Shown in pieces: positions 5,451 to 53,400 of a stretch of 64,000 nt of DNA (position 1 is its first letter; each line of letters begins with the position of its first letter). The translations under genes were made by a program, and so were the position numbers. The notes below the pieces were generated by a model, which was not told the DNA's origin, did no database searches, and saw only the letters and a program-made list of their open reading frames with translations. Origin of the DNA: a virus (lineage: Duplodnaviria; Caudoviricetes); IMG/VR virus record IMGVR_UViG_3300031998_000039, positions 1 through 64,000 of that record, one strand, 5' to 3'.

Positions 5451-5834
5451 ATGGGATTTATACAAGAAAATTATAATCCATATGGTAAACATGTTGATGA
5501 TTGTGTTATCCGTGCAATAGCAACTGTGACAGGAAAAGATTGGGATGAAGTATATTTAGACTTAGCTGTTGCTGGTTATGAGGCAAAAGATATGCCAAAC
5601 GGAAATATACTTTGGGGTTCTTATCTCCTATCACATGGTTTTAGTAGACATTCATTGCCAGATACGTGTCCGTTATGTTATACGGTTAAGCAGTTTGTTA
5701 GAGATCATAGATTTGGTAAATATGTTTTAGGTGATGGGCAACATGCAATTGCTGTTGTAGATGGATATTATATTGACACATGGGATAGTGGAGATAGAAC
5801 TGTCTTATTCTATTTTAGAAAGGATGATGATTAG
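5451..5834 (+). CDS. Putative papain-fold (C39-like) cysteine peptidase-like protein
   Basis: DCVIRAI Cys, HAIAVVDG His, DTWDSG Asp pattern. Confidence 0.5.
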   Translation: MGFIQENYNPYGKHVDDCVIRAIATVTGKDWDEVYLDLAVAGYEAKDMPNGNILWGSYLLSHGFSRHSLPDTCPLCYTVKQFVRDHRFGKYVLGDGQHAIAVVDGYYIDTWDSGDRTVLFYFRKDDD

Positions 5835-6238
5835 TGTATCAATACTATCAACAACAAGTACCTTATCAAAACTATCAGGCACAACAAAGACAAGAGCAAT
5901 TAAATCAAGTGTTTGCTTCCACATATAATTATAATTATGTGAAAGACAGACGTGAAGCTGAAGGTTGGCCGATAGCACCGGGCAATCATTTGGTATTTGA
6001 AGACCAAAATGGATTGTATTTTTATACGAAATCGTTAGGTTTTGCACCTAATGAAAATTATGTATTTACAGTGTTTAAAAAAGAAGAACAAGTTCAACCA
6101 CAACGTGTGGAAGAACCTACTCGATTAGAAACCGAAGTGGATTCCTTAAAGGGCGACATCGCTGAATTAAAGAAACTCTTCGAGCAGTTTACTGCCAATA
6201 ACAAACCTAGGTTTGATAAGAAAGGTGGTGGTAAATGA
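5834..6238 (+). CDS. Hypothetical protein with Q/Y-rich N-terminus and C-terminal coiled coil
   Basis: GTG start overlapping previous stop; MYQYYQQQ.. low-complexity N-terminus. Confidence 0.75.
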   Translation: MYQYYQQQVPYQNYQAQQRQEQLNQVFASTYNYNYVKDRREAEGWPIAPGNHLVFEDQNGLYFYTKSLGFAPNENYVFTVFKKEEQVQPQRVEEPTRLETEVDSLKGDIAELKKLFEQFTANNKPRFDKKGGGK

Positions 6239-14673: not shown

Positions 14674-15456
14674 ATGGCAAATCCTATTCTTATACAAATA
14701 ACTTTGCCCAATGGTAATACTTATGACATAGTTGACCAAGGGGCAAGAGATTTAATAAAAGAACTTATGAATATTCATGAGTATCTTGGTGTCACAACTA
14801 CTGCCCTAGTTGATGGTTCTACCACAAACCCTATTACTATTGATGGAGAATCGGTTACTGCGGAAGCTGGTGACGTTGTTACTTTAAGTTCAGATAGTAG
14901 CGAAATGGTATTTGATTCACTTGGCGAATGGCATACTTTTGGTTCGTTGTCGGGGCTTGGTGCATTGGCATTTAAGAACTCTGCTAGTGGCAGCTTTACT
15001 CCTCAAGGCTCAGTAAGCGCAAGCTTTACTGGTACTGCTACAACGTCAACAGGATCGTTTACTCCTGAAGGTTCAGTGAGTGCAAGTTTTAGTGGCACTT
15101 CTACTACTTCTACGGGAACGTTTACACCAGAGGGTTCTGTAAGTAGTTCTGGCGGAACAAAGACAATTAAACAGTTTAAGAGTGGTGGCTCAATGCCTAC
15201 GTATACTGTAAGCAATGGTAATCTAACAATCGGAGCTGGCACGGAAGCATCGGGAGAAGATGTTACTGTAGGTGATGGCTCTGTATCAAGTACATTTAGT
15301 GGTACTGCGGGAAGTGTTAGTGTTAGCGGAACTCCCAGTGGCTCTGTCAGCGCAACGTTTAGTGGTACTGCAGGGAGTGTCAGTGTTAGTGGAACTCCTA
15401 GCGGTTCTGTTAGCGGAAGTTTCACAGGTACTGCCGGAACTGTCACAGTATCGTAA
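14674..15456 (+). CDS. Fibre/needle protein with 21-aa Gly/Ser/Thr repeats
   Basis: 63-nt periodic repeats (FTPEGSVSASFSGT; FSGTAGSVSVSGTPSGSVS); LGALAFK motif. Confidence 0.7.
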   Translation: MANPILIQITLPNGNTYDIVDQGARDLIKELMNIHEYLGVTTTALVDGSTTNPITIDGESVTAEAGDVVTLSSDSSEMVFDSLGEWHTFGSLSGLGALAFKNSASGSFTPQGSVSASFTGTATTSTGSFTPEGSVSASFSGTSTTSTGTFTPEGSVSSSGGTKTIKQFKSGGSMPTYTVSNGNLTIGAGTEASGEDVTVGDGSVSSTFSGTAGSVSVSGTPSGSVSATFSGTAGSVSVSGTPSGSVSGSFTGTAGTVTVS

Positions 15457-15474
15457 TGAAAAGGAGGTAAGAAC

Positions 15475-17331
15475 ATGGCTGACATAGAATTAAAAAGCAT
15501 GAACCTACCTAATGATAATAATACGTATTGGTTTACTGATAAAGACGCACAAGATAAAATAGACAGTTCATTGGAATCGGTATCGGGCAATCCTATATCC
15601 ATCACGGGTTTAAAATCCTCGCAATTAGCGGTCAATCCCGTTATAATCTTTGAGCCGATACAGGACTTACACGGGCAGAGTAAGTCTTATCCCGCAGGCG
15701 GGGGAAAGAATAAGCTAAACGCTGACGATTATTACGATTCTTACAAACAGACAGACGGCTCTTATCGTGCTACGGGTGGCACATTTAATGGCATTAAAAT
15801 ATATGCTACAAGTGACATGATTGGCAATACATACACGTTTTCAGCGTATTTAGATTTGTCAAAAGAAACCTCACCTACAAATGCCCTTACAAAAAGAGCG
15901 GTTAACGGTGTTGGCACAAATGGTACTCTTATTAATTCGGGTGAAAAGGGAGTGTCAAGCGTTACATTTACACCTACGTCAACAAGTGATTATGTATTTA
16001 TAACTTATGGCACAGGTAGTGACCGCTATTTTACCGCATCAAACTTGCAGATAGAAGCAGGCGAAACGGCAACGGCATACGCCCCTTACGAAAACATCTG
16101 CCCAATAAGTGGCTATGATAAAATTGAGGTTTTATCGGGAAATAAAAATGTAATTACAGAAATTGAACAGGGTTCTTGGGATAAGTCAACAGGTACTAAA
16201 ACCACAGGCAGTACAAGATGCCGTTCAATCCGTATGTACCCATTAGGTTCTTCACAATACGTATTATCAGTGGCAAGTAATGTAAGTGGAAAAACTGCAA
16301 TGGTTGTTGTGCATGAATACGTATATTCTAACGGTACATTTGTCAATACATTTGATAGTGGTTGGCAAAATTCGGGATATACATTTACAGCCACAGCAGG
16401 AATGTATTATGCCTTTGTATTTGGTTTTACTGATAATTCAAATGTAACACCTGCATCATTTAAGGATGTTCAACTTGAAACAGGTCAGACCACCACAACC
16501 TACGCCGAACCCCATAAAACCACAGATTTATCCGAATCTTTGGGGCAGACGGTGTATGGCGGTTCGTTGAATATTAGAAGTGGAAAGTTGACTAAAACAT
16601 GGGGTATCATAACATTTGATGGATATGAAAATTGGGCAGAATACGATGGCGGTTACTACTATTCAATAAGAGGATTTGCACAAGCCGAAATCACGGGTGC
16701 AATCGCAAATCGGTTTGCATATTCAACGGCAAAGACAACTGGTACATTCAGAGGATTAAGTGGTGGAGGTTCATATACACCATTGTTCTATTATAGCGGA
16801 GTATCAAGTCTACAAGATTGGATATATTGGTTAAGGGATAACCCCATTACATTTGTATATCCACTTGCTACATCCATCGAAATTCAACTCACCCCTCACG
16901 AAATACCCCTTGCGCAGGGCTACGCTTATCTGTCTACCAACGGAACATTAATTCAGTTGGCTTACCACAACGGCGAGATGGCAAGGTTGGCGGATGTGGA
17001 ACAGTTAAGTGAAACGGTGGAAAAAGGGTTCGCATTATTCCCAACATTTGGATTCCCTAAAGTTGAGATAGCGGATAAGGGTGTTACGTCATCATCATCA
17101 TATAGCCTTGATTTAACTACTTTGAAAAATAATCTATATTTAATTTCGGCGATATATACTACGGGTGGGTTTTCAGCATTTGGTGTGCTATGTAAACGTA
17201 GCGATACTTGGTCATATCAAAATTTGTATACGTCAAATCGTATAACTATTAGTTTATCGGGGACAACATTATCGTTTGTGGTCACTTCGGGGTATGGTGC
17301 ATCTTACGTGAATGTTGTGGCTTTGTATTAA
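15475..17331 (+). CDS. Tail fibre/receptor-binding protein with two CBM-like modules
   Basis: Repeated (G)KN....Q(I/L)E.G..(A/T)T.Y.P modules. Confidence 0.7.
   Translation: MADIELKSMNLPNDNNTYWFTDKDAQDKIDSSLESVSGNPISITGLKSSQLAVNPVIIFEPIQDLHGQSKSYPAGGGKNKLNADDYYDSYKQTDGSYRATGGTFNGIKIYATSDMIGNTYTFSAYLDLSKETSPTNALTKRAVNGVGTNGTLINSGEKGVSSVTFTPTSTSDYVFITYGTGSDRYFTASNLQIEAGETATAYAPYENICPISGYDKIEVLSGNKNVITEIEQGSWDKSTGTKTTGSTRCRSIRMYPLGSSQYVLSVASNVSGKTAMVVVHEYVYSNGTFVNTFDSGWQNSGYTFTATAGMYYAFVFGFTDNSNVTPASFKDVQLETGQTTTTYAEPHKTTDLSESLGQTVYGGSLNIRSGKLTKTWGIITFDGYENWAEYDGGYYYSIRGFAQAEITGAIANRFAYSTAKTTGTFRGLSGGGSYTPLFYYSGVSSLQDWIYWLRDNPITFVYPLATSIEIQLTPHEIPLAQGYAYLSTNGTLIQLAYHNGEMARLADVEQLSETVEKGFALFPTFGFPKVEIADKGVTSSSSYSLDLTTLKNNLYLISAIYTTGGFSAFGVLCKRSDTWSYQNLYTSNRITISLSGTTLSFVVTSGYGASYVNVVALY
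16508..16522 (+). repeat. Intragenic copy of the cassette-junction left half
   Basis: AACCCCATAAAACCA, exact match to 17694-17708. Confidence 0.5.
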
Positions 17332-17364
17332 CCCCATAAAATAACCATTTTAGGAGGAAAGATG
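17329..17364 (+). repeat. Cassette-junction repeat (TAACCCCATAAAATAACCATTTTAGGAGGAAAGATG)
   Basis: Spans stop of the fibre gene to start of the next ORF; same motif as the 51.6-53.2 kb junctions. Confidence 0.85.
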
Positions 17365-17604
17365 TGGAAAGTTTCAACAGTAATATGTCTTAAATGCCTA
17401 AAGCGTTGGGTATCGGTTAGAGAACGGGAAGTTTTATTGACGCAATTAGAATGTCCACAATGTGGTGAAATAGGCTTTGCAATCGAAACAGGGGAAGAAG
17501 TCAACGAGAAACTTTGCGAATCCTGTAAGGCATTTAAAGATGGGAAGTGTAAATTAGGGTTATCCAATGATGAGGATTGCCCATATTTTGAATACAATGG
17601 ATAA
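17362..17604 (+). CDS. Zinc-ribbon protein
   Basis: CLKC, CPQC, CESC..C..C; SD AGGAGG. Confidence 0.8.
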   Translation: MWKVSTVICLKCLKRWVSVREREVLLTQLECPQCGEIGFAIETGEEVNEKLCESCKAFKDGKCKLGLSNDEDCPYFEYNG

Positions 17605-17613
17605 GGAGGATAT

Positions 17614-17703
17614 ATGGGCATAATTGTATTATTTATAGCATTTTTTGTATCGGGCTATATAGCAGGATATTGCACAGAGGATAAAGACAAAGCAACCCCA
17701 TAA
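17614..17703 (+). CDS. 29-aa single-TM peptide (MGIIVLFIAFFVSGYIAGYCTEDKDKATP)
   Basis: SD AAGGAGG; own translation; ends inside the junction repeat. Confidence 0.65.
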   Translation: MGIIVLFIAFFVSGYIAGYCTEDKDKATP

Positions 17704-17714
17704 AACCAAAATTT

Positions 17715-17831
17715 CATTCGGTGGCGGAATAGGTAGACGCTAATGGTGTACAACATGAGAAGAACGGTTTGTACAAGCCGTGAGGAGTGAAGTCTTTGTT
17801 TCATGTAAGGTGCAAATCCTTACCCGAATGA
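17715..17831 (+). ncRNA. Anticodon-less tRNA-like RNA, copy A
   Basis: Acceptor CATTCGG/CCGAATG, Leu-type D-arm GCGGAATAGGTAGACGC, T-arm GTAAGG-TGCAAAT-CCTTAC; large structured insert in place of an anticodon arm. Confidence 0.8.
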
Positions 17832-17868
17832 TTTATACAGCGCCTTTTAGGGCATTAATTTTATACGG

Positions 17869-17904
17869 AGCAGGGAGGGGAGCAATCTCCTCTCTGCTAT
17901 TTTT
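17869..17904 (+). terminator. Rho-independent terminator
   Basis: AGCAGGGAGGGGA-GCAA-TCTCCTCTCTGCT followed by a T-tract. Confidence 0.85.
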
Positions 17905-17969
17905 AAGATATGACAGTAAATAGTAGGGCATAATTACTAATTACGGATTACTATATGCTGTTATGTTAG

Positions 17970-17994
17970 GACGCGGGGCTTCTCGCGTCTTTTT
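17970..17994 (+). terminator. Terminator-like hairpin just upstream of the tail operon
   Basis: GACGCGGG/CTCGCGTC followed by TTTTT. Confidence 0.7.
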
Positions 17995-18025
17995 CGGATT
18001 TAGAAAATTGAAAGAGGTGAAGGGT

Positions 18026-18514
18026 ATGGCAGATGATAAATTAAAAAAACGTATACAAAAAAGAGCAGAACAAATTTTGCATGATAAAATAAAACCTATT
18101 GTTAAACAATTAATAAAAGATGTCAATCAAGAAGTTAAATTAGCCATAGAGCGATTTTATGATGATCAATTTGATACATTTTATAATAGTGATTTTACAC
18201 CAAAAACTTATGTAAGACAATATGGTATGCAGGATATGTATCGTATAACAACTAAAAGAACTCCATTGGGTTATATTATAACATATAGGTTTGCTGCTGA
18301 TTTGGAAACAGCGCAGCATACTAGATGGAGTGGAAAAGCTGATGGCGCAAATGAAGCCGTATTTAATCTTAACTTTATGTATGGTTATCATGGTGGATAT
18401 ATGTTAGATAAGGATAATCCTAAAGGATGGAGATATCCTAGAATACGAACAATTCCATCTCCTTATGAACAAATCAAAGATTATATAGATAATTATAAGA
18501 TTCCGGAGGTATAA
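18026..18514 (+). CDS. Putative tail completion/neck protein
   Basis: SD GAGGTG before ATG 18026; P..Y.R motif; directly upstream of the tape measure. Confidence 0.5.
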   Translation: MADDKLKKRIQKRAEQILHDKIKPIVKQLIKDVNQEVKLAIERFYDDQFDTFYNSDFTPKTYVRQYGMQDMYRITTKRTPLGYIITYRFAADLETAQHTRWSGKADGANEAVFNLNFMYGYHGGYMLDKDNPKGWRYPRIRTIPSPYEQIKDYIDNYKIPEV

Positions 18515-18516
18515 TT

Positions 18517-21500
18517 ATGGCACGTAAGAAAAACGAAGCGGTTATTCCGATTACTGTTGAAGCGACAGGAAAAGGCATAAATGAAGCCATGCAAGAGGCT
18601 GAGAAACTAGAAAAACAAACTAAAAAAACCAAAAAACAAACTAAAGAATTAAAAGATTCTTTGGCTCAAACTGGTGATGGCGCGAAACAGGCGGCTAAAG
18701 GAGTGCAAATTCTTGATGATCAAATGAAAGATTTTGCAGATAATCTTAAAGCTGTAAAAGAAGCCTTAGAAGATATTCATAAATTATTAGGTGAAAAAGG
18801 AATAACTTTTAATACTGAAAAAATACAAGAACAAATTGGGAAATTAAAAACAGAATTTGCCAGTTTAAATACAACTATAAATTCTGCATTTAAAGATGAT
18901 GCCAGCACGGACAATTGGATACGTAGATTGACCAAGGTTGCTGGTGATATAAGGAATATACGTTTTAGATTATTTGGTGATGACAAGGTTCCGCAAGAAA
19001 CCATTAAGGTAAAGTTAGCATCTATTGATAAAGATGATAACCCCGTAGCGGATATTGTTAATTCATTAAAAGAAATTAAGAAGTTCCAAATTCCATTAGA
19101 ACCAATTAATCAATTGTTAGCTAAACTTAATGAAATATCACGAGTAATAACTGATATTATGGTTGGATTACGGTTAGATAGTAAATTGCCAACTGCAGTT
19201 ATTAAAGATGAATTAACAGAAGTTAAAACCCAACTTGACGCTATTAATAAAGAAGCTAATAAATATGAAAAAACACTTTCTCGTCTTACAGGTATAACTA
19301 AAAACAAAAATGTTGATGAAAATGGAAAAGAAACTGTAACTGAAATATTTCATACTAATGCTTTAGTTAAAACAGCAAAACAGGTATATACTAAAGATAA
19401 ACCAGATCAAAAGGATATTCAAGCTCTTGAAAAAGAAATTATTAAATTATTGCAGTTTGGCGCCGATTTAGAAAATGTAAATGTTAAAGTTGGCAAATCA
19501 GCAACAAATTATTTTCAGATTGTAAAATCTATGTTTAAAAATTATTCTACCAGCATGATGCCTCAAGGCAGTGGTGGATTAAAAGATTATTTATCTGAAT
19601 TTTTTGATTATGCTGTTTCAAAAGATAGCGCAAATCCTTCTATTCTATTAAAAAATCAAAAAGTATACGAAGAAACATTTGCTAAGACATATAAAAATCT
19701 TTTAAAACAAAAGGAATATTATACTAAACAATTATCTTTTGCAGAAGCCAGAGACGCTACGCCTTCTGTTATTGCGTATGATGAAGATACAGTAAAAGCA
19801 ATGGCTAATGCGTTAGGCAATTTAGGAACTAATGTAACGCAAACCGCTAATCAGGTTTCTACAGTAACACAATTTAGTCAAGAACAATTAACGCAACTGG
19901 TTGGCGGATTATCTGCTATTGTAGAGTGGTTAGAAAAGATTAATACAGCGCTTGGTGAATTAGGTACTAAAACTGATATTTTTAATAATTTGCCGACTTT
20001 TAATATTAACGAGCAGGATCAAATAGATGATTTAGCACAAGCTGTTGCTGATAAAAACAAAGAATATTTAAAATTTTTAGAGCAAACTAATATAGTAACA
20101 AATTCAATTCTTGATAGTATTAAAAATATTACTATTGCAGCAAAAGATTTGGATTTATCTGATTTGTTTAAAAATTTTACAGGGACACAGCCTGCAAATG
20201 GCTCTGCTAATGATTTAATACAATCATTAAAAGACATTCAAGCTGCAGAAAAGAAAGTTGTAATTGGTAAAAAGAAATTTAGTGAACAGGCTGAAGAAAT
20301 TCGTAATCTTGCTCAAGCTTATGCAAAATATAAAGCTTTAGGTGGAACTGAATCTATCGCAGATATGACTAAAAAGCGAGGATTGGCTTCGCGTGTTGAA
20401 CAGGAATATATAAAATTGGCTTCTCAAAGTCAAGACATTTCTATACCTGTTAATATTGTTCCTAAGTTAACTGATGATTTTGATGCACAATTGCAAAAAT
20501 TAATTGATTTACAATCTTCAGATATAGATATAAACATTAAGCCTAACATATCAGATGTTGTAAATGATTTTATTAAACCAATTATGGTTGCTGTTGAAGG
20601 ACATCCTGTAGAAGTAGAGGTTGCTCCTATTGTAGATCAGTTTATTAAGGATATTCAGGCAGCATTAACAAAGTCATTGGATTTATCTTCAATAAAAGAA
20701 TTAACAGCGTCAATTGAGAATGCACTTAAGGCTGAACAAATTCCTGTACATTTAGATCCTGTTATTGATGACTTAATATCCAAAATAAAATCAACGTTAG
20801 CAAAAAGAGAGTTTGGTATTCAATTAAAACCTATTGTTAACAATTTTATACAAAATATTAAAGTTGCATTAGACAAGAAACAAGTTCCTGTTAATATTAA
20901 GCCTGTAGTAGGCAAAGAATTTAATGATGAATTAAAAAAGAAATTAGAAAATAAAAAGCCCGGAGTTAGTATTACTCCAAATAATATCAGCGAATTTGTT
21001 AAAAAGCTACAATCTTCTTTAGATAAAAAAGTTGTTAAAATAAAAGTTGAACCAATATTAAAAGATTTTATTAAACGGTGTAAAGAAATATTATCTGGCA
21101 AATATGTTCCAGTAAATTTTAAACCGCAAAATCCTATACATAATAATGGCAAACCTTTTAACAATCAAGAGATGCAGCAGTTGTTAGATGACGAAACGAC
21201 TAATAAATCTCAAAAAACAACATCAATGGTTAACGGACATATTGTTAGTGGCAAAGTCGTTACTGATGATAATGGTGTTAAAAGGACATATACCGTTGAC
21301 CAATTTGGTAATGAAAAAGTAACAGAACAAACTGTTAACAAAGAAAAACAAATTGAAAAAGAATATAAAGAAATTTTATCTAATTATAATCAGATTCTTC
21401 AATTAAAACGTCAAATGAAGAATCAAACAGAAAAAGAAGCTGAAGTAACAAAACAAATTATTAGTGAACTAACAGAAACTACAGAAGCGCAATATAATGC

Positions 21501-36081: not shown

Positions 36082-37071
36082 GTGGCAACAGAAACAGATT
36101 ATGCGATATTTCAACCAGATTTGTCTTATCAGATAGATATATATGATGAAGGTAATAGAGCATTTCGAGGTACCTATACAATTTCTGAGTTATTATCTTT
36201 GTTGCAACAAATACCAAGTTGCGAAGATTGTGATAGCGTGTTGATAGCAAAAGGTACAAATATTCAGCAGGGATATAGTATTTTTACACCATTAAAAATT
36301 GGTAGTAGAACGTCTTATTATGTTGGAGATAACAGTTTATATGAACCTGCCGGAAACAGGCAATATGTATTATGGCAATATGATAACGGAATATATGACG
36401 GGAAATATTATGGCTTTTATAATAGTACTTCTTTAAGTTCTGTTAATTCAAACTATTCAAGAGAAACTATTGATGGAATTGAGTATTATTGGGATTATTG
36501 GCCGCAAAATAATAGTTACAAACCAATACTATATATTACCTCATCGGTTGATCGTGTTGTTATTAATTCGCATCCTGAAATTTCTAACGGTGGCGGAGCA
36601 ACCCACATAGCTACACGCACAGGCACTCTTATGAGCATAGGTTCATCTAACTTATCAGATGTGCTTATAGTGTCTGGTGGTGGCGGTGGTGGTGTACTTG
36701 TTGGAGAAACCGCTAATGGTGGTGCTGACGCAGGTGGAATAAGCGGAAATGGAACATTATCAGCAGACCAGACTACTGGTTACGGCTTTGGACAGGGTGA
36801 AAGCGGTGCAGATGTAAGTAGTGGTGGTGGCGGATTATATGGTGGCTACAAAGGTACAAGTGCTTTAAGCGGTGGTGCTGGCAGTGGCTATATAGGCAAC
36901 TCTGATTTGTCTAACAAAAAGATGGTTGGATATGATGTTCCCACTTCAAGTTCAACAAGCACCAAAACAGAAAGTGTCAACGATGCCTCAGCAACTCCTA
37001 TATCGGGTAAACCTAAGATTGGCAATGGGTTTGTGAGGATTACACTGCTCAGTGCCAGCACGGTAGAATAA
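36082..37071 (+). CDS. Tail-tip protein: variable N-terminal domain plus C-half of a glycine-rich domain
   Basis: GTG start with SD GGAGG; NGGGATHIA..LIVSGGGGG..GFGQG..GGGGLYGG..GGAGSGYIG..GNGFVRIT. Confidence 0.7.
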   Translation: MATETDYAIFQPDLSYQIDIYDEGNRAFRGTYTISELLSLLQQIPSCEDCDSVLIAKGTNIQQGYSIFTPLKIGSRTSYYVGDNSLYEPAGNRQYVLWQYDNGIYDGKYYGFYNSTSLSSVNSNYSRETIDGIEYYWDYWPQNNSYKPILYITSSVDRVVINSHPEISNGGGATHIATRTGTLMSIGSSNLSDVLIVSGGGGGGVLVGETANGGADAGGISGNGTLSADQTTGYGFGQGESGADVSSGGGGLYGGYKGTSALSGGAGSGYIGNSDLSNKKMVGYDVPTSSSTSTKTESVNDASATPISGKPKIGNGFVRITLLSASTVE

Positions 37072-42720: not shown

Positions 42721-43071
42721 TTATTCTCCCTCTGCAATGTTGTTATCGGTGCTTGTATTAACAGGAATACGACAAGCATCACAAGGCTCATCAATATTTT
42801 CTTTCGCATGTTTTAATCTCTCTATTCTGTCATTAGCCTGTTGCATTTCTTCTTCTGTAGCGTGACGATTACCGTTTTGATCTACATAAGGATGTTCTTC
42901 ATTCCACTTTTCTTGCGAATGCTGAAGTGCCTTAAGATATGCATCGTTTAAAGCTTTAGCCACTACCTTTTTAAATGCACTGCAATCCTTATCGCAATAC
43001 TTTTCTTTGCGACATTTATCACAATTGCCATCAAGTAGCCACTGTTCGGTTTCAGGTATTTGTTTCTCCAT
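42721..43071 (-). CDS. Hypothetical Cys-rich protein
   Basis: QW..G.CDKCRK.KYC.K.C. Confidence 0.7.
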   Translation of the reverse strand: MEKQIPETEQWLLDGNCDKCRKEKYCDKDCSAFKKVVAKALNDAYLKALQHSQEKWNEEHPYVDQNGNRHATEEEMQQANDRIERLKHAKENIDEPCDACRIPVNTSTDNNIAEGE

Positions 43072-48868: not shown

Positions 48869-49792
48869 TTATTCTCCTAATACAATTTTCTTTGCCCAGT
48901 TCATTGCTTGTGAACTTACTGCCTTGCCAAAGTACTGACTACTAATTACATCTGCTATCAGTTCGGGTTCTTCTTTGATAACATCATCGTAGATGCGTTT
49001 CGGAAGGTTACGGGCTACAACAGCCATATCCTTGGGAGTTATCTGCTCTGGTAATAAACCTTCATCTATTTGCTTATTTATATCCTTACGAACTCTTGCT
49101 TCGGTGACAACTTCTGCAGCTACCTCTTCAGCATGTGCTTTTTCGAGCAGATGTTCAGGATCAAGCACTTTCTTCTCATGGTTATGTTGCTTTGTTTCCG
49201 AAAAACTATCGTTGATAACTTTAAGATAAAAAGGATTTCTGCAATCAGGATCATTAAGTTTTGTCATGTTCTTACAAACACAACCTTCGATAGCATTACC
49301 ATACATAGGCTGATTAAAGAATGACTTAACATGCTCCCATGATACAAATGGGCCGTCATAATAGGTATGTACATAAATCAGTCCATGTGATTCCGCATAC
49401 GCTTTAACTTCATCTTGAGGTAGCCACTGTTCTGTATCTTTATCAAATATGTCATATACATACCACTTGTTATATGCATCTTTGTCATATTTAACCGTAT
49501 GCGGTACTAACCACTCGCCATATAAACAACGATTGCCTAAATCACGGAACTTTTCTTTATCAAGCGTCTGTACGAAATTCCAAAAACCACGCAAATTGTT
49601 AGTCATATTGAGTTCATTCTTACGGCTAAAAGCTTTAAGTTCACCGTCTTCCCAAGCAATCTGGGCATTACAACCGTCCACTTTTGTCTGGATAACGACT
49701 CTATCTCCCACCTCAAACGCTCCAGTATTAGCTGCAACCATTCCGTCTTCACTGTTCTCTTTAACTCTGACTATATCCATAAAGTGCTTCAT
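48869..49792 (-). CDS. ATP-dependent RNA ligase (Rnl2-like)
   Basis: KVDGCN adenylation motif, SRK, YGEW, YDI, EGCV.KN. Confidence 0.8.
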   Translation of the reverse strand: MKHFMDIVRVKENSEDGMVAANTGAFEVGDRVVIQTKVDGCNAQIAWEDGELKAFSRKNELNMTNNLRGFWNFVQTLDKEKFRDLGNRCLYGEWLVPHTVKYDKDAYNKWYVYDIFDKDTEQWLPQDEVKAYAESHGLIYVHTYYDGPFVSWEHVKSFFNQPMYGNAIEGCVCKNMTKLNDPDCRNPFYLKVINDSFSETKQHNHEKKVLDPEHLLEKAHAEEVAAEVVTEARVRKDINKQIDEGLLPEQITPKDMAVVARNLPKRIYDDVIKEEPELIADVISSQYFGKAVSSQAMNWAKKIVLGE

Positions 49793-49826: not shown

Positions 49827-50498
49827 TTATGAGGCTGTTTCCAAAGGTAATAATGGCAATATATGATCTTGCTCATATATAAATGGTTTAATATCTGTTT
49901 TAGTTATATCATTCAAGTAATTTCTTAACCATTCATAATCAGAATTATGTTCTTTATAATATGCATCAATTCTTTTATATTTTAAGTTAAAATATTGACA
50001 TAACCTTTTTAAAGAAGTACGAAAACCATTGTATACAAACATCACATTACTTCTTTTATTATTTGCTTGCTCATATATATCAACAAAACGACAATTTTCT
50101 GGACAATAATTTTTTTCGTTATTTATACGATCGATAGTTAAAGAATTATTATAACCATGTTCAAATGCCCAGTTTTCAAACGTTTTATACGATTGCTCCC
50201 ATTCGGGACATATGTTAATTATATGATTACCTTGGTGATAAACTTTATAACTGTCAGTATTTGGATTTTTACATCGAGTTTTAATATTTATCCAAATAGC
50301 ATGTAATCGTTGATTTAATACTTCGTCTTGACACCTACACGGATTGCTGCCACGATAATAATGACTGCGCCACATAGTATAATGTTTGTTGCAAAATTTA
50401 CATTTTACTTCAATCAAAACATTCTTACCCACTCGTTCTATTGATTGAATATATTGTGCGCCATGCTGATTTTCATTCTTAATTTTACCTCGACTCAT
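49827..50498 (-). CDS. HNH-type homing endonuclease
   Basis: W.NIKTRC.NP..I.IC.EW..F.NW..LTIDRINN..Y.PENCR...QANN. Confidence 0.8.
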   Translation of the reverse strand: MSRGKIKNENQHGAQYIQSIERVGKNVLIEVKCKFCNKHYTMWRSHYYRGSNPCRCQDEVLNQRLHAIWINIKTRCKNPNTDSYKVYHQGNHIINICPEWEQSYKTFENWAFEHGYNNSLTIDRINNEKNYCPENCRFVDIYEQANNKRSNVMFVYNGFRTSLKRLCQYFNLKYKRIDAYYKEHNSDYEWLRNYLNDITKTDIKPFIYEQDHILPLLPLETAS

Positions 50499-50937
50499 TT
50501 TTCTCCCGTTCTTCAAGATGTTTAATAAGTTTTTCGCAATACCATCGACTCTTTAAAACGTCTTGTAACCCATTCTTCTTTTTGTAACGACAGATATATT
50601 TCAGCACATTAGCTACACAAACCGCTTCAATTCCAGTAAGGTCTTCCGTAAATGCTTCAATATAATCAATCACTTCCAACCCATTCTTGCTTTTGTAATG
50701 CCCGGGATTTACCGCAGGATCTTTGCTTTCATATATAGATTTCTTTGCTAACTTCTCTGCTCTAATCTTTGCAAGTTCCTCTTTACTCTTTGGATGCTTG
50801 CCCTTATAGTTAGGTGAGATTTCTGTCAAATCTGTATCAGGAATAGGATTCTTCAAAATCTGTCCTGTCAACGAAACAATTTCGTCAGCTTTTGTTACTG
50901 TCGGTATAACGGGTGCATAAGGATCAATATGTTCCAT
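50485..50937 (-). CDS. DUF3310-family protein
   Basis: VNPGHY..EVIDYI..NVLKY..RY.KKNG.QD..K..WY. Confidence 0.75.
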   Translation of the reverse strand: MEHIDPYAPVIPTVTKADEIVSLTGQILKNPIPDTDLTEISPNYKGKHPKSKEELAKIRAEKLAKKSIYESKDPAVNPGHYKSKNGLEVIDYIEAFTEDLTGIEAVCVANVLKYICRYKKKNGLQDVLKSRWYCEKLIKHLEEREKNESR

Positions 50938-51212: not shown

Positions 51213-51464
51213 TCATTTATCTTTAAACTTTTCTAATTCTTCTTTAGTAGGTGTTAATCCTCTTGCAAGCATATTAGAAATTATATTAACTTCTGTGTAT
51301 TGGTTGCATTCTGGACAACGAATAACATCAATTTTTGTTCGATCCCAATTTATATCCATTACATCAAGATAAGTAATATCTTTCTTTATATATCCTATCT
51401 CAGCTCCACATTTTTCACAAACAGTAACTTTATAAGCATTACCATGTTTTAATATAACAGACAT
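51213..51464 (-). CDS. Zinc-ribbon protein
   Basis: CEKC..CPEC; SD AAGGAG. Confidence 0.75.
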   Translation of the reverse strand: MSVILKHGNAYKVTVCEKCGAEIGYIKKDITYLDVMDINWDRTKIDVIRCPECNQYTEVNIISNMLARGLTPTKEELEKFKDK

Positions 51465-51484
51465 ATTATTCTCCTTTCAAAATA

Positions 51485-51601
51485 TCATTCGGGTAAGGAT
51501 TTGCACCTTACATAAAACAAAGACTTCACTCCTCACGGCTTGTACCAACCGTTCTTCTCATGTTGTACACCATTAGCGTCTACCTATTCCGCCACCGAAT
51601 G
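51485..51601 (-). ncRNA. Anticodon-less tRNA-like RNA, copy B
   Basis: Two substitutions relative to 17715-17831; one turns a G-C pair into G-U. Confidence 0.8.
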
Positions 51602-51620
51602 AAATTTTGGTTTTATTGGG

Positions 51621-51719
51621 TTACTTTATGTTTTTCCTAAAGTCATCTTTCATATCAACATACAACCAACTAAAAGCACTAATTACTGTAATCAACGTTA
51701 ATACTTTTAAAAAAATCAT
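51621..51719 (-). CDS. 32-aa single-TM peptide (MIFLKVLTLITVISAFSWLYVDMKDDFRKNIK)
   Basis: SD AGGAGG; own translation; the stop codon is the TAA of the junction repeat. Confidence 0.7.
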   Translation of the reverse strand: MIFLKVLTLITVISAFSWLYVDMKDDFRKNIK

Positions 51720-51745
51720 CTTTCCTCCTAAAATTATCACATAAA

Positions 51746-51964
51746 TTAAGACCAAATATGAGAATTAACTATATCATCAACTGTTAAATTCATTAATTCA
51801 ATTTGAATATTATCAAGTTCATCAACAATATTTGTATGCCCAGATATTTGAGCAAGTTCTTTAACAAATTCGATTGTTGTTATAATTGCAGGACGGCAAT
51901 ATGGTTCTATAAATGATGAATGTTCATATTTTTTAACAACTTTTTTTAATTGTTCTGCTGTCAT
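51746..51964 (-). CDS. Hypothetical protein (72 aa)
   Basis: SD AGGAGG before ATG 51964. Confidence 0.7.
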   Translation of the reverse strand: MTAEQLKKVVKKYEHSSFIEPYCRPAIITTIEFVKELAQISGHTNIVDELDNIQIELMNLTVDDIVNSHIWS

Positions 51965-51984
51965 CTTTCCTCCTAAAATGGTTA

Positions 51985-52139
51985 TCATTCGGGTTAGGAT
52001 TTGCACCTAACATGATATATATACAGGAATATATATCCAGCGATGGAGCTACCAATCTTACCTGCGTCTACTATTACTCGTGGACTAAAAGTCTTTTTGC
52101 CGAGTTTTACCATAGCCATGTCTATTCCGCCACCGAATG
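51985..52139 (-). ncRNA. Anticodon-less tRNA-like RNA, copy C (different payload, 50-nt D-loop insertion)
   Basis: Same acceptor and D-stem; T-stem GTTAGG/CCTAAC is a compensatory change versus GTAAGG/CCTTAC. Confidence 0.8.
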
Positions 52140-52158
52140 AAATTTTGGTTTTATGGGG

Positions 52159-52350
52159 TTATTGTAATAAATCCTTCCGTTTCAAGTTTTCTTCAATCAT
52201 AACCCACTTATTACCATCAAACTTATATAAATCCCCATATATAGTCAAAATGGAATTACAAAGGTTTGTATCAACTCTCGTTCCATTTGTTGCTTTGAGG
52301 ATTTCTATAAAATCTTCTTTAGGCATTGCCCTTTGTTTGCTAAAATCCAT
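52159..52350 (-). CDS. Hypothetical protein
   Basis: Bounded by junction repeats. Confidence 0.7.
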   Translation of the reverse strand: MDFSKQRAMPKEDFIEILKATNGTRVDTNLCNSILTIYGDLYKFDGNKWVMIEENLKRKDLLQ

Positions 52351-52377
52351 CTTTCCTCCTAAAATGGTTATATGGGG

Positions 52378-52728
52378 TTATTTGTCTGTCCATGACTTGA
52401 ATGCACATATCTTTTCTACTAATCCACTAGTATCTCCATCGAATGTAATGGCTCTATCATCAACATAAACAAGGGCAGGTGGTTTTACGTCTGAAATTCT
52501 GTCAAATTTAATGTTGTATTTTTCAAGCCATCCTTTCATAGCAATCTTACCCGTAGGATAGACACTTCTTGTTGATACTATTACAACCTCATAACCTTTT
52601 TCACGCAAATTGTCTATAGTTTCTTTAATTCCTTGCACTGGTTCATCAGATATTATATCGTGACCTTGCCATCCACTTTTATAACTATGAATCACACCAT
52701 CAAAATCAAATACGATTGTCTTTTTCAT
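52378..52728 (-). CDS. HAD-family phosphatase
   Basis: FDFDGV, IVSTR, KP, YVDDRA. Confidence 0.8.
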   Translation of the reverse strand: MKKTIVFDFDGVIHSYKSGWQGHDIISDEPVQGIKETIDNLREKGYEVVIVSTRSVYPTGKIAMKGWLEKYNIKFDRISDVKPPALVYVDDRAITFDGDTSGLVEKICAFKSWTDK

Positions 52729-52754
52729 CTTTCTTCTCCTTTGGTTTTATTGGG

Positions 52755-52979
52755 TTAGCCCTTAAGGTAAAGAGAATAATCGGACATTTCATCAAAACCA
52801 CATCCGTTATTTGTAGGCTTTATCTCTTTTATTTCTTCATTAAGTTGATTTTCGCAAAATTCAACCAACCACTTTTTCAAGCCTTTAATTTCATTAGGTT
52901 GAAAATATGAAAAACTCCCATCTGGCCTAATATGCTTTATGATACAAGCAAGTATTTCTTTTACATTCTCGTCTATCAT
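52755..52979 (-). CDS. Hypothetical protein
   Basis: Bounded by junction repeats. Confidence 0.7.
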   Translation of the reverse strand: MIDENVKEILACIIKHIRPDGSFSYFQPNEIKGLKKWLVEFCENQLNEEIKEIKPTNNGCGFDEMSDYSLYLKG

Positions 52980-53012
52980 AATCTTCCCCTCCTAAATGGT
53001 TATTTTATGGGG

Positions 53013-53141
53013 TTACTCAGTATCGCTATCATCTGGACTCCAACCGTTCATTGTAAATGCCCATGCAACAACAAAAATCCAAAAGAATGCCACAGCAACT
53101 ATGCCACCTAATGCCAAAAATAATTGTAATACAATATTCAT
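53013..53141 (-). CDS. 42-aa single-TM peptide
   Basis: SD AGGAGG before ATG 53141; hydrophobic core and acidic tail. Confidence 0.7.
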   Translation of the reverse strand: MNIVLQLFLALGGIVAVAFFWIFVVAWAFTMNGWSPDDSDTE

Positions 53142-53223
53142 ATTTCCTCCTAAAATGGTTATTGAAAATTTCTGAGGGTGACCGAAGTCAGCCCTCAGTA
53201 TAAACTTAAAAGGTTTCAATACT

Positions 53224-53400
53224 CTAAAATGGTTCTTTTAATTCTGCCTCACATTTAGGACATATTTTTGGACAATCATCGTATTGATACCAGTAGCCAC
53301 ACTCTGAACAACAGTACCCATAAACATTTTGATTATTAAAAAATCCACCATTTATCCAATGTGGTATCCATTTTCCGATTTTTTTATTCTTCTCCGTCAT
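53224..53400 (-). CDS. Zinc-ribbon protein (58 aa)
   Basis: Own translation MTEKNKKIGKWI..CSECG..CPKCEAEL. Confidence 0.7.
   Translation of the reverse strand: MTEKNKKIGKWIPHWINGGFFNNQNVYGYCCSECGYWYQYDDCPKICPKCEAELKEPF

Follow-up and report, generated by a model that had tools for sequence, protein, structure and literature searches.

A 36-nt Junction Motif Behind a Tail-Fibre Gene: Likely Home Site of a Modular Cassette Array in Uncultured Phages

Introduction

The DNA considered here, called the window below, comprises bases 1-64000 of the 98,755-bp IMG/VR record IMGVR_UViG_3300031998_000039, from a virus of the class Caudoviricetes. In it, a tail-fibre-like gene ends inside a 36-nt motif, called the junction, and is followed by a short string of small genes and a tRNA-like RNA (T1), which together form the post-fibre mini-array. 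A larger array, whose units are joined by variants of the same junction, lies on the opposite strand at 51-53 kb and contains a close copy of this RNA (T2). The locus thus raises the question of where the mini-array comes from and how its parts move. According to the original prediction, it is an ectopic piece of the 51-53 kb system, cassettes were recently moved or copied through the junction, and the same route might exchange the C-termini of the fibre.

In the present study, this locus is compared with its relatives. The comparison leads to another answer to the first part of the question, namely that a modular cassette array, exchanged at the junction, likely has its normal and ancestral location behind the fibre in an uncultured phage group.

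Computational Details

The record is metagenome-derived, its ends are classed as linear, and its completeness is estimated to be 64%. No relative was found among GenBank phages by blastn of positions 15400-18600, and a protein-based locus search with the fibre protein and a downstream 183-aa open reading frame (ORF) gave no related locus either. The relatives were reached only by searching for the junction motif itself. This gave first five viral records, called G001-G005, and in later motif scans some 30 further viral and metagenome contigs with true junctions, one of them an 82-kb phage that has junction copies at two sites. Against bacterial genomes, a degenerate 19-mer gave matches at chance level only and the extended junction was found in none, nor was there a prophage copy of the junction among the 120 bacterial stretches listed. 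The low G+C content, the GGAGG ribosome-binding sites (RBS) and the Bacillota-type RNA genes suggest that the hosts of the junction-bearing phages are Bacillota.

Results and Discussion

We start with the anatomy of the junction (see Table 1 for the coordinates of all features). The first TAA of the motif is the stop codon of the fibre ORF, and the elements that follow are, in this order, a zinc-ribbon ORF, a membrane peptide, a left half of the junction and a tRNA-like RNA; in both respects the original prediction was correct. The sequence of the motif, TAACCCCATAAAATAACC, has a TAA at positions 1, 9 and 14, that is, in all three frames, and then GGAGG and ATG. Any upstream ORF therefore stops there, and the next ORF restarts 33 nt further on; the zinc-ribbon ATG lies at this distance from the fibre TAA and in the same frame. 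The left-half 12-mer, with at most one mismatch, is present in nine copies in the window compared to 0.55 expected. For the right half there are five copies compared to 0 expected.

To see which of the stops is used, we counted those junctions that are preceded by an open frame of 25 codons or more, the frame being assigned heuristically from the longest open frame. Of these 57 junctions, 38 use the first TAA as the stop, 17 the second and 2 the third. The use of the second TAA is unambiguous in at least five junctions, including those of the membrane peptide in the window and of the G004 fibre, because the first TAA is absent there.

Table 1. Positions of the features discussed in the text (window coordinates, except where another record is named).
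Feature	Position	Strand	Description
Tail-fibre-like gene	15475-17331	+	618 aa; variable segments alternating with nucleotide-conserved islands
In-gene look-alike of the left half	16508-16522	+	GAA CCC CAT AAA ACC (EPHKT), in frame; 5' edge of island 2
Island 2	16516-16562	+	47 nt
Island 1	16879-17018	+	..IQLTPHEI..STNGT..YHNGEMA..ADVEQL; conserved; left flank of the exchangeable tip
Variable fibre tip	17019-17328	+	ca 100 aa, after ..ADVEQLSETV; no nucleotide similarity to any relative, both flanks conserved
Full junction TAACCCCATAAAATAACCATTTTAGGAGGAAAGATG	17329-17364	+	36 nt; left half TAACCCCATAAAA and right half TAACCATTTTAGGAGGAAAGATG
Zinc-ribbon ORF cassette	17362-17604	+	80 aa, four Cys pairs
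Membrane-peptide ORF	17614-17703	+	29 aa; preceded by a GGAGG RBS; stop is the second TAA of the left half
Left half and leader AACCCCATAAAACCAAAATTT	17694-17714	+	12-mer AACCCCATAAAA at 17694-17705, then CCAAAATTT
T1	17715-17830	+	116 nt; 7-bp acceptor-like stem, Leu-type D arm, 68-nt insert, 6-bp T stem with UGCAAAU loop
Intrinsic terminator	17869-17905	+	13-bp stem at 17869-17898, then T run; would close the fibre/cassette operon
RNA ligase (PF09414)	48869-49792	-	
DUF3310 'nucleotide kinase'-type protein	50485-50937	-	
Large array	51462-53226	-	units joined by junction variants
T2	51486-51601	-	T1 paralogue in the array
T3	51986-52139	-	same scaffold, other insert, D loop interrupted by 50 extra nt; flanked by one left half and one right half
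Small HAD/PNK-phosphatase-like protein	52378-52728	-	
Two-hairpin RNA-like element	53138-53232; G003 (L070) 760-865	- (window)	small ATTGAAACC..GGGTTT hairpin and GC-rich hairpin, AAAUUU/AAAUUUU closing stem

The same arrangement is found in the relatives. All five of the records G001-G005 have a homologue of the fibre, with E values from 1e-23 to 4e-38 over aa 206-517, and in each of them the fibre stop codon lies inside the same 36-nt junction. Counting all related contigs, some 30 have the junction, with 97-100% identity, at the stop of the homologous fibre gene, and five relatives have their only copies at this site or at the next one. A blastn comparison of 1.5 kb on each side of the stop gives a regular picture: conserved islands in the fibre gene, located ca 1224, 839 and 450 nt before the stop, a tip of ca 310 nt that cannot be aligned, the junction with 97-100% identity, and then a small ORF that again cannot be aligned. 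The longer fibre homologues of the relatives match tail-fibre PHROGs. In four of the records (G001, G002, G003 and G005), the fibre is followed within ca 1.3 kb by holin-like and endolysin-like genes.

We now turn our attention to the cassettes. That they are exchanged, with breakpoints in the junction motif, is well supported by at least six sequence comparisons. In G001 and G004, the ORF after the junction is 96.6% identical from +5 to +268 and the similarity ends at the next left half, beyond which the sequences differ. The window and L191 share the junction, the zinc-ribbon ORF and the membrane peptide, with 92% identity over 375 nt, and L191 has exactly one added unit of right half, ORF and left half before the common CCAAAATTTCATTCGGTGGCGG. 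One cassette of G004 is absent from L194, where the fibre TAA leads straight into the left half, the leader and a remnant of the tRNA-like gene, and L198 has one cassette more than G002. The post-fibre cassette of G002 and G005 corresponds to window positions 53016-52740 (minus strand), with 91.4% identity over 278 nt from the junction to the left half and unrelated flanks, which means that the same cassette is found behind the fibre in one phage and in the distant array of the window. The contig L359 matches window positions 52161-51462 with 98.0% identity over 700 nt (T3, a 72-aa ORF, the membrane peptide and T2), and the cassettes on both sides of this segment differ. In L364, finally, cassettes resembling those of both window arrays stand side by side on one strand. 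The comparison of filled and empty loci that had been proposed as a check thus gives insertions, deletions and swaps with breakpoints in the motif; scatter unrelated to the motif was not seen, and the claim that cassettes move through the junction can be upheld.

A corresponding picture emerges for the fibre. For island 1, the nucleotide identity in blastn is 72-86% between the window and the relatives and 68-91% among the relatives themselves, and between this island and the stop codon nothing can be aligned between the window and the relatives. The tips of the window and L191 are unrelated and their downstream blocks 92% identical, the same holds for G001 and G004 with a downstream identity of 96.6%, and L191 and L194 have a common tip and different downstream sequences. 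The fibre of G006 terminates just past island 1. An exchange of fibre tips between the conserved island and the junction is supported by these patterns. The predicted exchange of the fibre C-termini would accordingly stand in outline, with the left crossover placed at island 1 (ca 16879-17018) and not at position 16508.

It is important to clarify what the sequence at 16508 represents, since it had been taken for a copy of the left half at a module boundary. The match is an exact 15-mer, consisting of the left half plus CCA, and when one gap is allowed it extends to a 22-nt alignment with a score of 32, compared to a maximum of 27 in 500 shuffles; the resemblance to the left half in its leader form thus exceeds chance. 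The window reads GAA CCC CAT AAA ACC ACA (EPHKTT) at this point, and the relatives read GAA CCC TAC CAT AAA ACC ACA (EPYHKTT) at the same place, that is, they carry GAACCCTACCATAAAACCACAGAT there. As the fibre genes of the relatives hold a homologous in-frame sequence, the copy at 16508 is coding sequence by descent and not an inserted half-repeat; at the codon level, the gene has GAA where the junctions have TAA. The mosaic boundary itself is real. In 17 distinct fibre genes, island 2 has a mean pairwise identity of 91%, third codon positions included, compared to 35% in the 60 nt upstream and 49% in the 60 nt downstream, and the conserved block starts inside the motif-like core.

On this basis, the following mechanism can be proposed. 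Each cassette would be a promoterless unit consisting of a right half (RBS and ATG), a small ORF or structured RNA, and a left half (stop), and the 36-nt junction would be formed wherever two units meet. The whole string would be read as the tail of the fibre transcript, up to the strong terminator that follows T1 at 17869. Neither the junction at 17329-17364 nor the stretch between the cassettes at 17329-17860 contains a promoter-like or terminator-like site, and the fibre and the cassette string probably constitute one transcript. As the junction is near-identical everywhere over 12-36 nt, recombination inside it would add, delete or replace single cassettes. This could take place both within a genome and between co-infecting phages, and we infer that general or phage-encoded homologous recombination is responsible. 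By the same logic, the in-frame islands of the fibre together with the terminal junction would swap the fibre tip. T1 and T2 are paralogues of one RNA cassette, generated by duplication or gene conversion between shared ends of the scaffold.

A number of observations weigh against this proposal. The 36 nt are near-perfectly conserved among phages whose fibres are only 37% identical, which could partly reflect selection on expression. On its right side, the T1/T2 duplication stops where the RNA stops and not at a junction motif, so that this duplication may have used the RNA scaffold as homology, together with the left half. The junction hairpin that would hide the RBS is weak (-5.3 kcal/mol, with a z score of ca 0 relative to shuffled sequence), and a structural role of the motif in translational coupling is thus not backed by the folding energy. 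Also, no recombinase could be tied to the motif, and none lies consistently beside the arrays in the relatives examined.

These points lead to the alternatives. One of them, which we judge to be rather unlikely, goes further than the proposal above and regards the junction as a purpose-built universal adaptor and sequence-directed recombination site at the same time. It would combine a three-frame stop, an RBS, a start and an expandable A/U stem that hosts RNA genes, and the fibre gene contains its core CCCCATAAAACCA too, read in frame as EPHKT at a domain boundary. A single motif-guided mechanism, integron-like and with no known integrase, would then shuffle receptor-binding domains, ORFs and RNA genes.

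Another option considered was a dedicated sequence-specific recombination or nicking system of the integron type, in which an enzyme recognises the CCCCATAAAA core between the cassettes and in the fibre look-alikes. Such a system would account for the presence of the same core at four kinds of mosaic boundary (island 2, the fibre end, the ORF cassettes and the RNA cassettes), for the sharp breakpoints, and for a motif that is ca 100% identical in otherwise dissimilar phages. The phage also encodes candidate enzymes, namely a tyrosine integrase and a PD-(D/E)XK nuclease near the large array, the former 9 kb from it, and HNH endonucleases. However, the lack of a recombinase gene that recurs beside the arrays of the relatives speaks against it, the motif contains neither an inverted repeat nor an attC-like fold (its fold is weak and not palindromic), and ordinary homologous exchange between identical patches of 12-36 nt can explain all the events. 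We therefore consider this option unlikely.

Still less favoured, and in our judgement decidedly unlikely, is the possibility that the motif is conserved for expression only, that is, for its RBS and stop, for coupling or for RNA processing, and that the cassette differences stem from illegitimate recombination that only seems to end there. Consistent with this, the stop, the GGAGG and the ATG have canonical spacing, and the start-associated sequences (SAS) of Cluster K mycobacteriophages provide a precedent for motifs conserved around an RBS (PMC3203893). Moreover, the halves of a split junction, AAAUUU ... AAAUUUU, are predicted to pair and close the structured RNAs inserted between them. 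One of these, the two-hairpin element, folds better than shuffled sequence, with z scores of -2.9 in the window and -3.8 in G003, and has no match in Rfam. But a role in expression only does not explain six independent indels or replacements with both ends in the motif, nor why the left half is conserved even where no RBS or ORF follows it (L177, L198, L326 and L336), and shuffled sequence folds as stably as the basic hairpin.

The preferred reading, that of an ancestral site exchanged at the junction, takes the post-fibre position to be the original one. In G001, G002, G004 and G005, the junction copies at this site are the only ones in the record. Behind the fibre of L340 stands an intact tRNA-like gene, and remnants of 12-17 nt from the 5' end of such a gene are found at this place in G004, L191, L194 and L358; its presence after the fibre is ancestral. 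The 21-mer of left half and leader at 17694-17714 is also found before T2 and T3, before the remnants in G004, L191 and L194, and before the intact RNAs in L340 and L338.

The other cassettes of the mini-array are also found behind the fibre in relatives. The zinc-ribbon ORF, which in Pfam has only a weak HypA-like zinc-ribbon match, follows the fibre also in L191 (92% nucleotide identity) and in L177 and L342 (87%), and a diverged copy (86%) is found on the short contig L364. Between the window and L191 it has 13 synonymous and 2 non-synonymous codon changes, the pattern of a gene that is under purifying selection. All six phages compared encode, downstream of the fibre, a hydrophobic peptide of 28-29 aa whose tail is charged. 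The peptide of L191 is near-identical to that of the window, and in G001, G002 and G005 the peptide stands directly before the holin.

The idea that the mini-array is a recent ectopic offshoot, copied from the 51-53 kb system, has on these grounds little chance of being correct. It draws on the size of the array at 51-53 kb, the largest one, with six motif copies compared to three near the fibre, and on the difference of only 3 in 139 positions between T1 and T2. However, a junction on the fibre stop is a conserved site in all the relatives examined, and in four of them, as seen above, it is the only site. The block of zinc-ribbon ORF, membrane peptide and leader follows the fibre in L191 too, and an intact or truncated tRNA-like gene is present after the fibre in at least five other phages. 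The word ectopic has thus to be given up, and with the post-fibre site conserved in the relatives it is instead the 51-53 kb array with its six copies that represents an exceptional expansion.

The age of the duplication can be judged from the relatives. The inverted repeat extends over 155 nt (17678-17832 and 51484-51638) with 95% identity, and its core, 17694-17832 against 51622-51484, has the predicted 3 mismatches, that is, 136 of 139 positions are identical. On the left, the duplicated segment is bounded by the left half, and weak similarity continues for another 16 nt upstream. An exact search of the viral contigs for the start of the T1 insert gave no hit, and the only other copy is in the metagenome contig L359. 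The T3 orthologues of L359 and L364 are 98-99% identical to that of the window, and in the T2 orthologue of L359 two of the three positions at which T1 and T2 differ are as in T2 and one is as in T1. This dates the duplication, or the most recent gene conversion, to roughly the time of the split from this 98%-identical relative. The copy is not younger than that split, which also speaks against a recent offshoot. The word "recently" in the original prediction has to be qualified in this sense.

The inverted pair, with its 139-155 nt and 95-98% identity, could invert the segment of 17.8-51.5 kb between its copies. No recombinant junction of the inversion type was present in any contig retrieved. 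We do not claim an inversion as an event, because the single contiguous array of L364 and L359 would not result from a simple T1/T2 inversion.

The last alternative, an assembly artefact in which the inverted duplicate stems from a chimeric contig, would fit a metagenome-derived record with linear ends and limited completeness, but the copies differ at three positions and each recurs with its own flanks in an independent contig of another sample, T1 in L191 (the 375 nt at 92%, plus the leader) and T2 in L359 (the 700 nt at 98%), which makes a chimera so very unlikely that it can be dismissed.

We next consider the tRNA-like RNAs themselves. T1-T3 share an acceptor-like stem CAUUCGG/CCGAAUG, and T1 and T2 have the D arm GGCGGAAUAGGUAGACGC and a 6-bp T stem with a UGCAAAU loop; in T3 the D loop is split by the 50-nt insertion, and the T stem shows a compensatory change from UAAGG/CCUUA to UUAGG/CCUAA. 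The insert common to T1 and T2 is unrelated to that of T3, and in other members the insert has ca 45-130 nt. T1 matches the conserved parts of a family of anticodon-less phage RNAs shaped like tRNA-Leu, whose scaffold was retrieved in ca 30 viral loci and in 80 loci of Bacillota genomes. The stems covary, with 92-100% canonical pairs in 106 distinct members. In the acceptor-like stem, the pairs are canonical in 92-99% of these members, and all four Watson-Crick types occur at most positions. As in the rest of the family, a variable insert takes the place of the anticodon arm in T1-T3, and the acceptor stem, D arm and 6-bp T stem are shared; what differs here is that the RNA genes are embedded as cassettes and preceded by the left half and CCAAAATTT.

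These RNAs are not canonical tRNAs. ARAGORN calls only four tRNAs in the window, at 54.8-55.2 kb, and Rfam finds five, none of them at 17.7, 51.5 or 52.0 kb even at E<=10. Neither T1 nor any of 15 family members from Bacillota genomes has a match in Rfam, and a literature search found no description of an anticodon-less RNA family shaped like tRNA-Leu. Nor was a dedicated protein partner found among the genes around these RNAs, which are positional neighbours only (in the viral contigs, integrases and holins).

In the prophage-like loci of Bacillota (L081-L160), the RNA usually lies on the same strand as its neighbours, downstream of a small regulator that we take to be RinA/ArpU-like and upstream of genes which, as read from the protein clusters, are presumably those for HNH and the small and large terminase. 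We take this position to be the start of the late operon. By eye, what appears to be a complete ordinary tRNA, a tRNA-Thr(GGU)-like cloverleaf, is nested in the variable insert of L011 (IMGVR_UViG_3300028833_001372, minus strand), and the inserts of L010/L043, L048 and L124 likewise seem to contain ordinary-tRNA-like sequence or extra T-arm-like hairpins of the type GGUUCGAnUCC.

An exact 16-mer, CTTTTAGGGCATTAAT, is present at 17844-17859 in the window, 3' of T1, and at 42864-42879 in G003 (L072 2864-2879), 5' of a tRNA-like RNA. Among all the loci fetched it is confined to these two phages, and it may date back to an earlier stage at which RNA genes stood in tandem.

It is instructive to compare the arrays with known systems. 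The closest are the PeSL cassettes of T4-type phages (Arbiol et al. 2010, PMC2839356; Comeau et al. 2014, PMC4122927), in which small ORFs are flanked by a repeated regulatory motif and indels and replacements result from recombination between its copies. In both cases, a short repeated motif that is an expression signal stands between small, mostly function-unknown and non-essential ORFs, and breakpoints fall in the motif, as they do in the six comparisons above. The PeSL motif is transcriptional, that is, an early sigma-70-type promoter with a terminator stem-loop, whereas the junction is translational, with neither promoter nor terminator found here. Its location is a late operon, behind the fibre gene, and the phages that carry it probably have Bacillota hosts.

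The SAS/ESAS of Cluster K mycobacteriophages (Pope et al. 2011, PMC3203893) have the 13-bp consensus GGGATAGGAGCCC, located 3-7 bp before the start codon. They resemble the junction in being a conserved motif of one orientation over the RBS, a few bases before the ATG, sometimes with an upstream stop, and followed by genes of unrelated families. The sequence of the junction differs from GGGATAGGAGCCC, and only the position overlapping the RBS is analogous. In the passages considered, the function of SAS is stated to be unknown and a role in exchange is not presented, the sequences are located in the non-structural half of the genome, and neither a three-frame stop nor RNA cassettes are described.

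With integrons, the arrays share co-oriented, promoterless single-gene cassettes, a recurring boundary site, a varying number of cassettes, and the occurrence of cassettes in different arrays. They differ in that no IntI-type integrase lies beside the arrays, judged by position (the neighbours in the relatives are fibre, holin and endolysin), in that an attC-like imperfect inverted repeat or stable fold is missing, and in that the site itself provides the stop and the start. The fibre, in turn, is similar to mosaic fibre and adhesin genes such as gp37/gp38 of the T4 superfamily, where host-recognition modules are swapped between conserved patches (PMC3157838); compared to the mosaics described there, the 3' patch is here non-coding and shared with accessory-gene cassettes. 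On the basis of the comparison with PeSL, SAS and integrons, we class the present case as linker-mediated modular shuffling.

If this is correct, the junction defines at the sequence level a route by which uncultured phages would trade accessory genes, RNA genes and the receptor-binding tip of the fibre, with a 36-nt linker that would assure termination and re-initiation of translation whatever is inserted. The many natural pairs of filled, empty and swapped loci can be used to study the turnover of the "moron" region of phages, and the motif can serve as a search handle for such arrays in metagenomes. It also places a large unexplained RNA family, the anticodon-less tRNA-Leu look-alikes, in a mobile and probably late-expressed cassette context, which narrows the ideas on its role.

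We finally describe the surroundings of the two arrays. In the order of transcription, the array at 51-53 kb comprises the two-hairpin element, a membrane peptide, a GCGFDE-family ORF, the HAD-like phosphatase, a 63-aa ORF, T3, a 72-aa ORF, a membrane peptide and T2, that is, mostly orphan ORFs in addition to the HAD/PNK-phosphatase-like protein. Sequences resembling the two-hairpin element were seen by eye after a left half also in L328, L357 and L362. An RNA ligase, the DUF3310 protein and the HAD/PNK-like protein adjoin the tRNA cluster and the anticodon-less tRNA-like RNAs. These three proteins look like an RNA (tRNA) repair kit, which may have a bearing on the role of the tRNA-like RNAs.

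Downstream of the fibre in G001 (L054), an ORF of 186 aa at ca 5630-6190 (minus strand), which by eye we take to be an HNH homing-endonuclease-like gene, separates the holin-like gene from the endolysin-like one. As G002 has none at that spot, the ORF has the look of a mobile insertion of its own.

Another observation concerns the position of the fibre module. In L341, a homologue (494-1313) of the tail gene at 36-37 kb of the window (36583-37040) is located ca 4.3 kb upstream of the fibre, while in the window the fibre lies ca 19 kb upstream of that tail gene. This indicates that the fibre/cassette module has been relocated relative to the tail module in the 99-kb phage.

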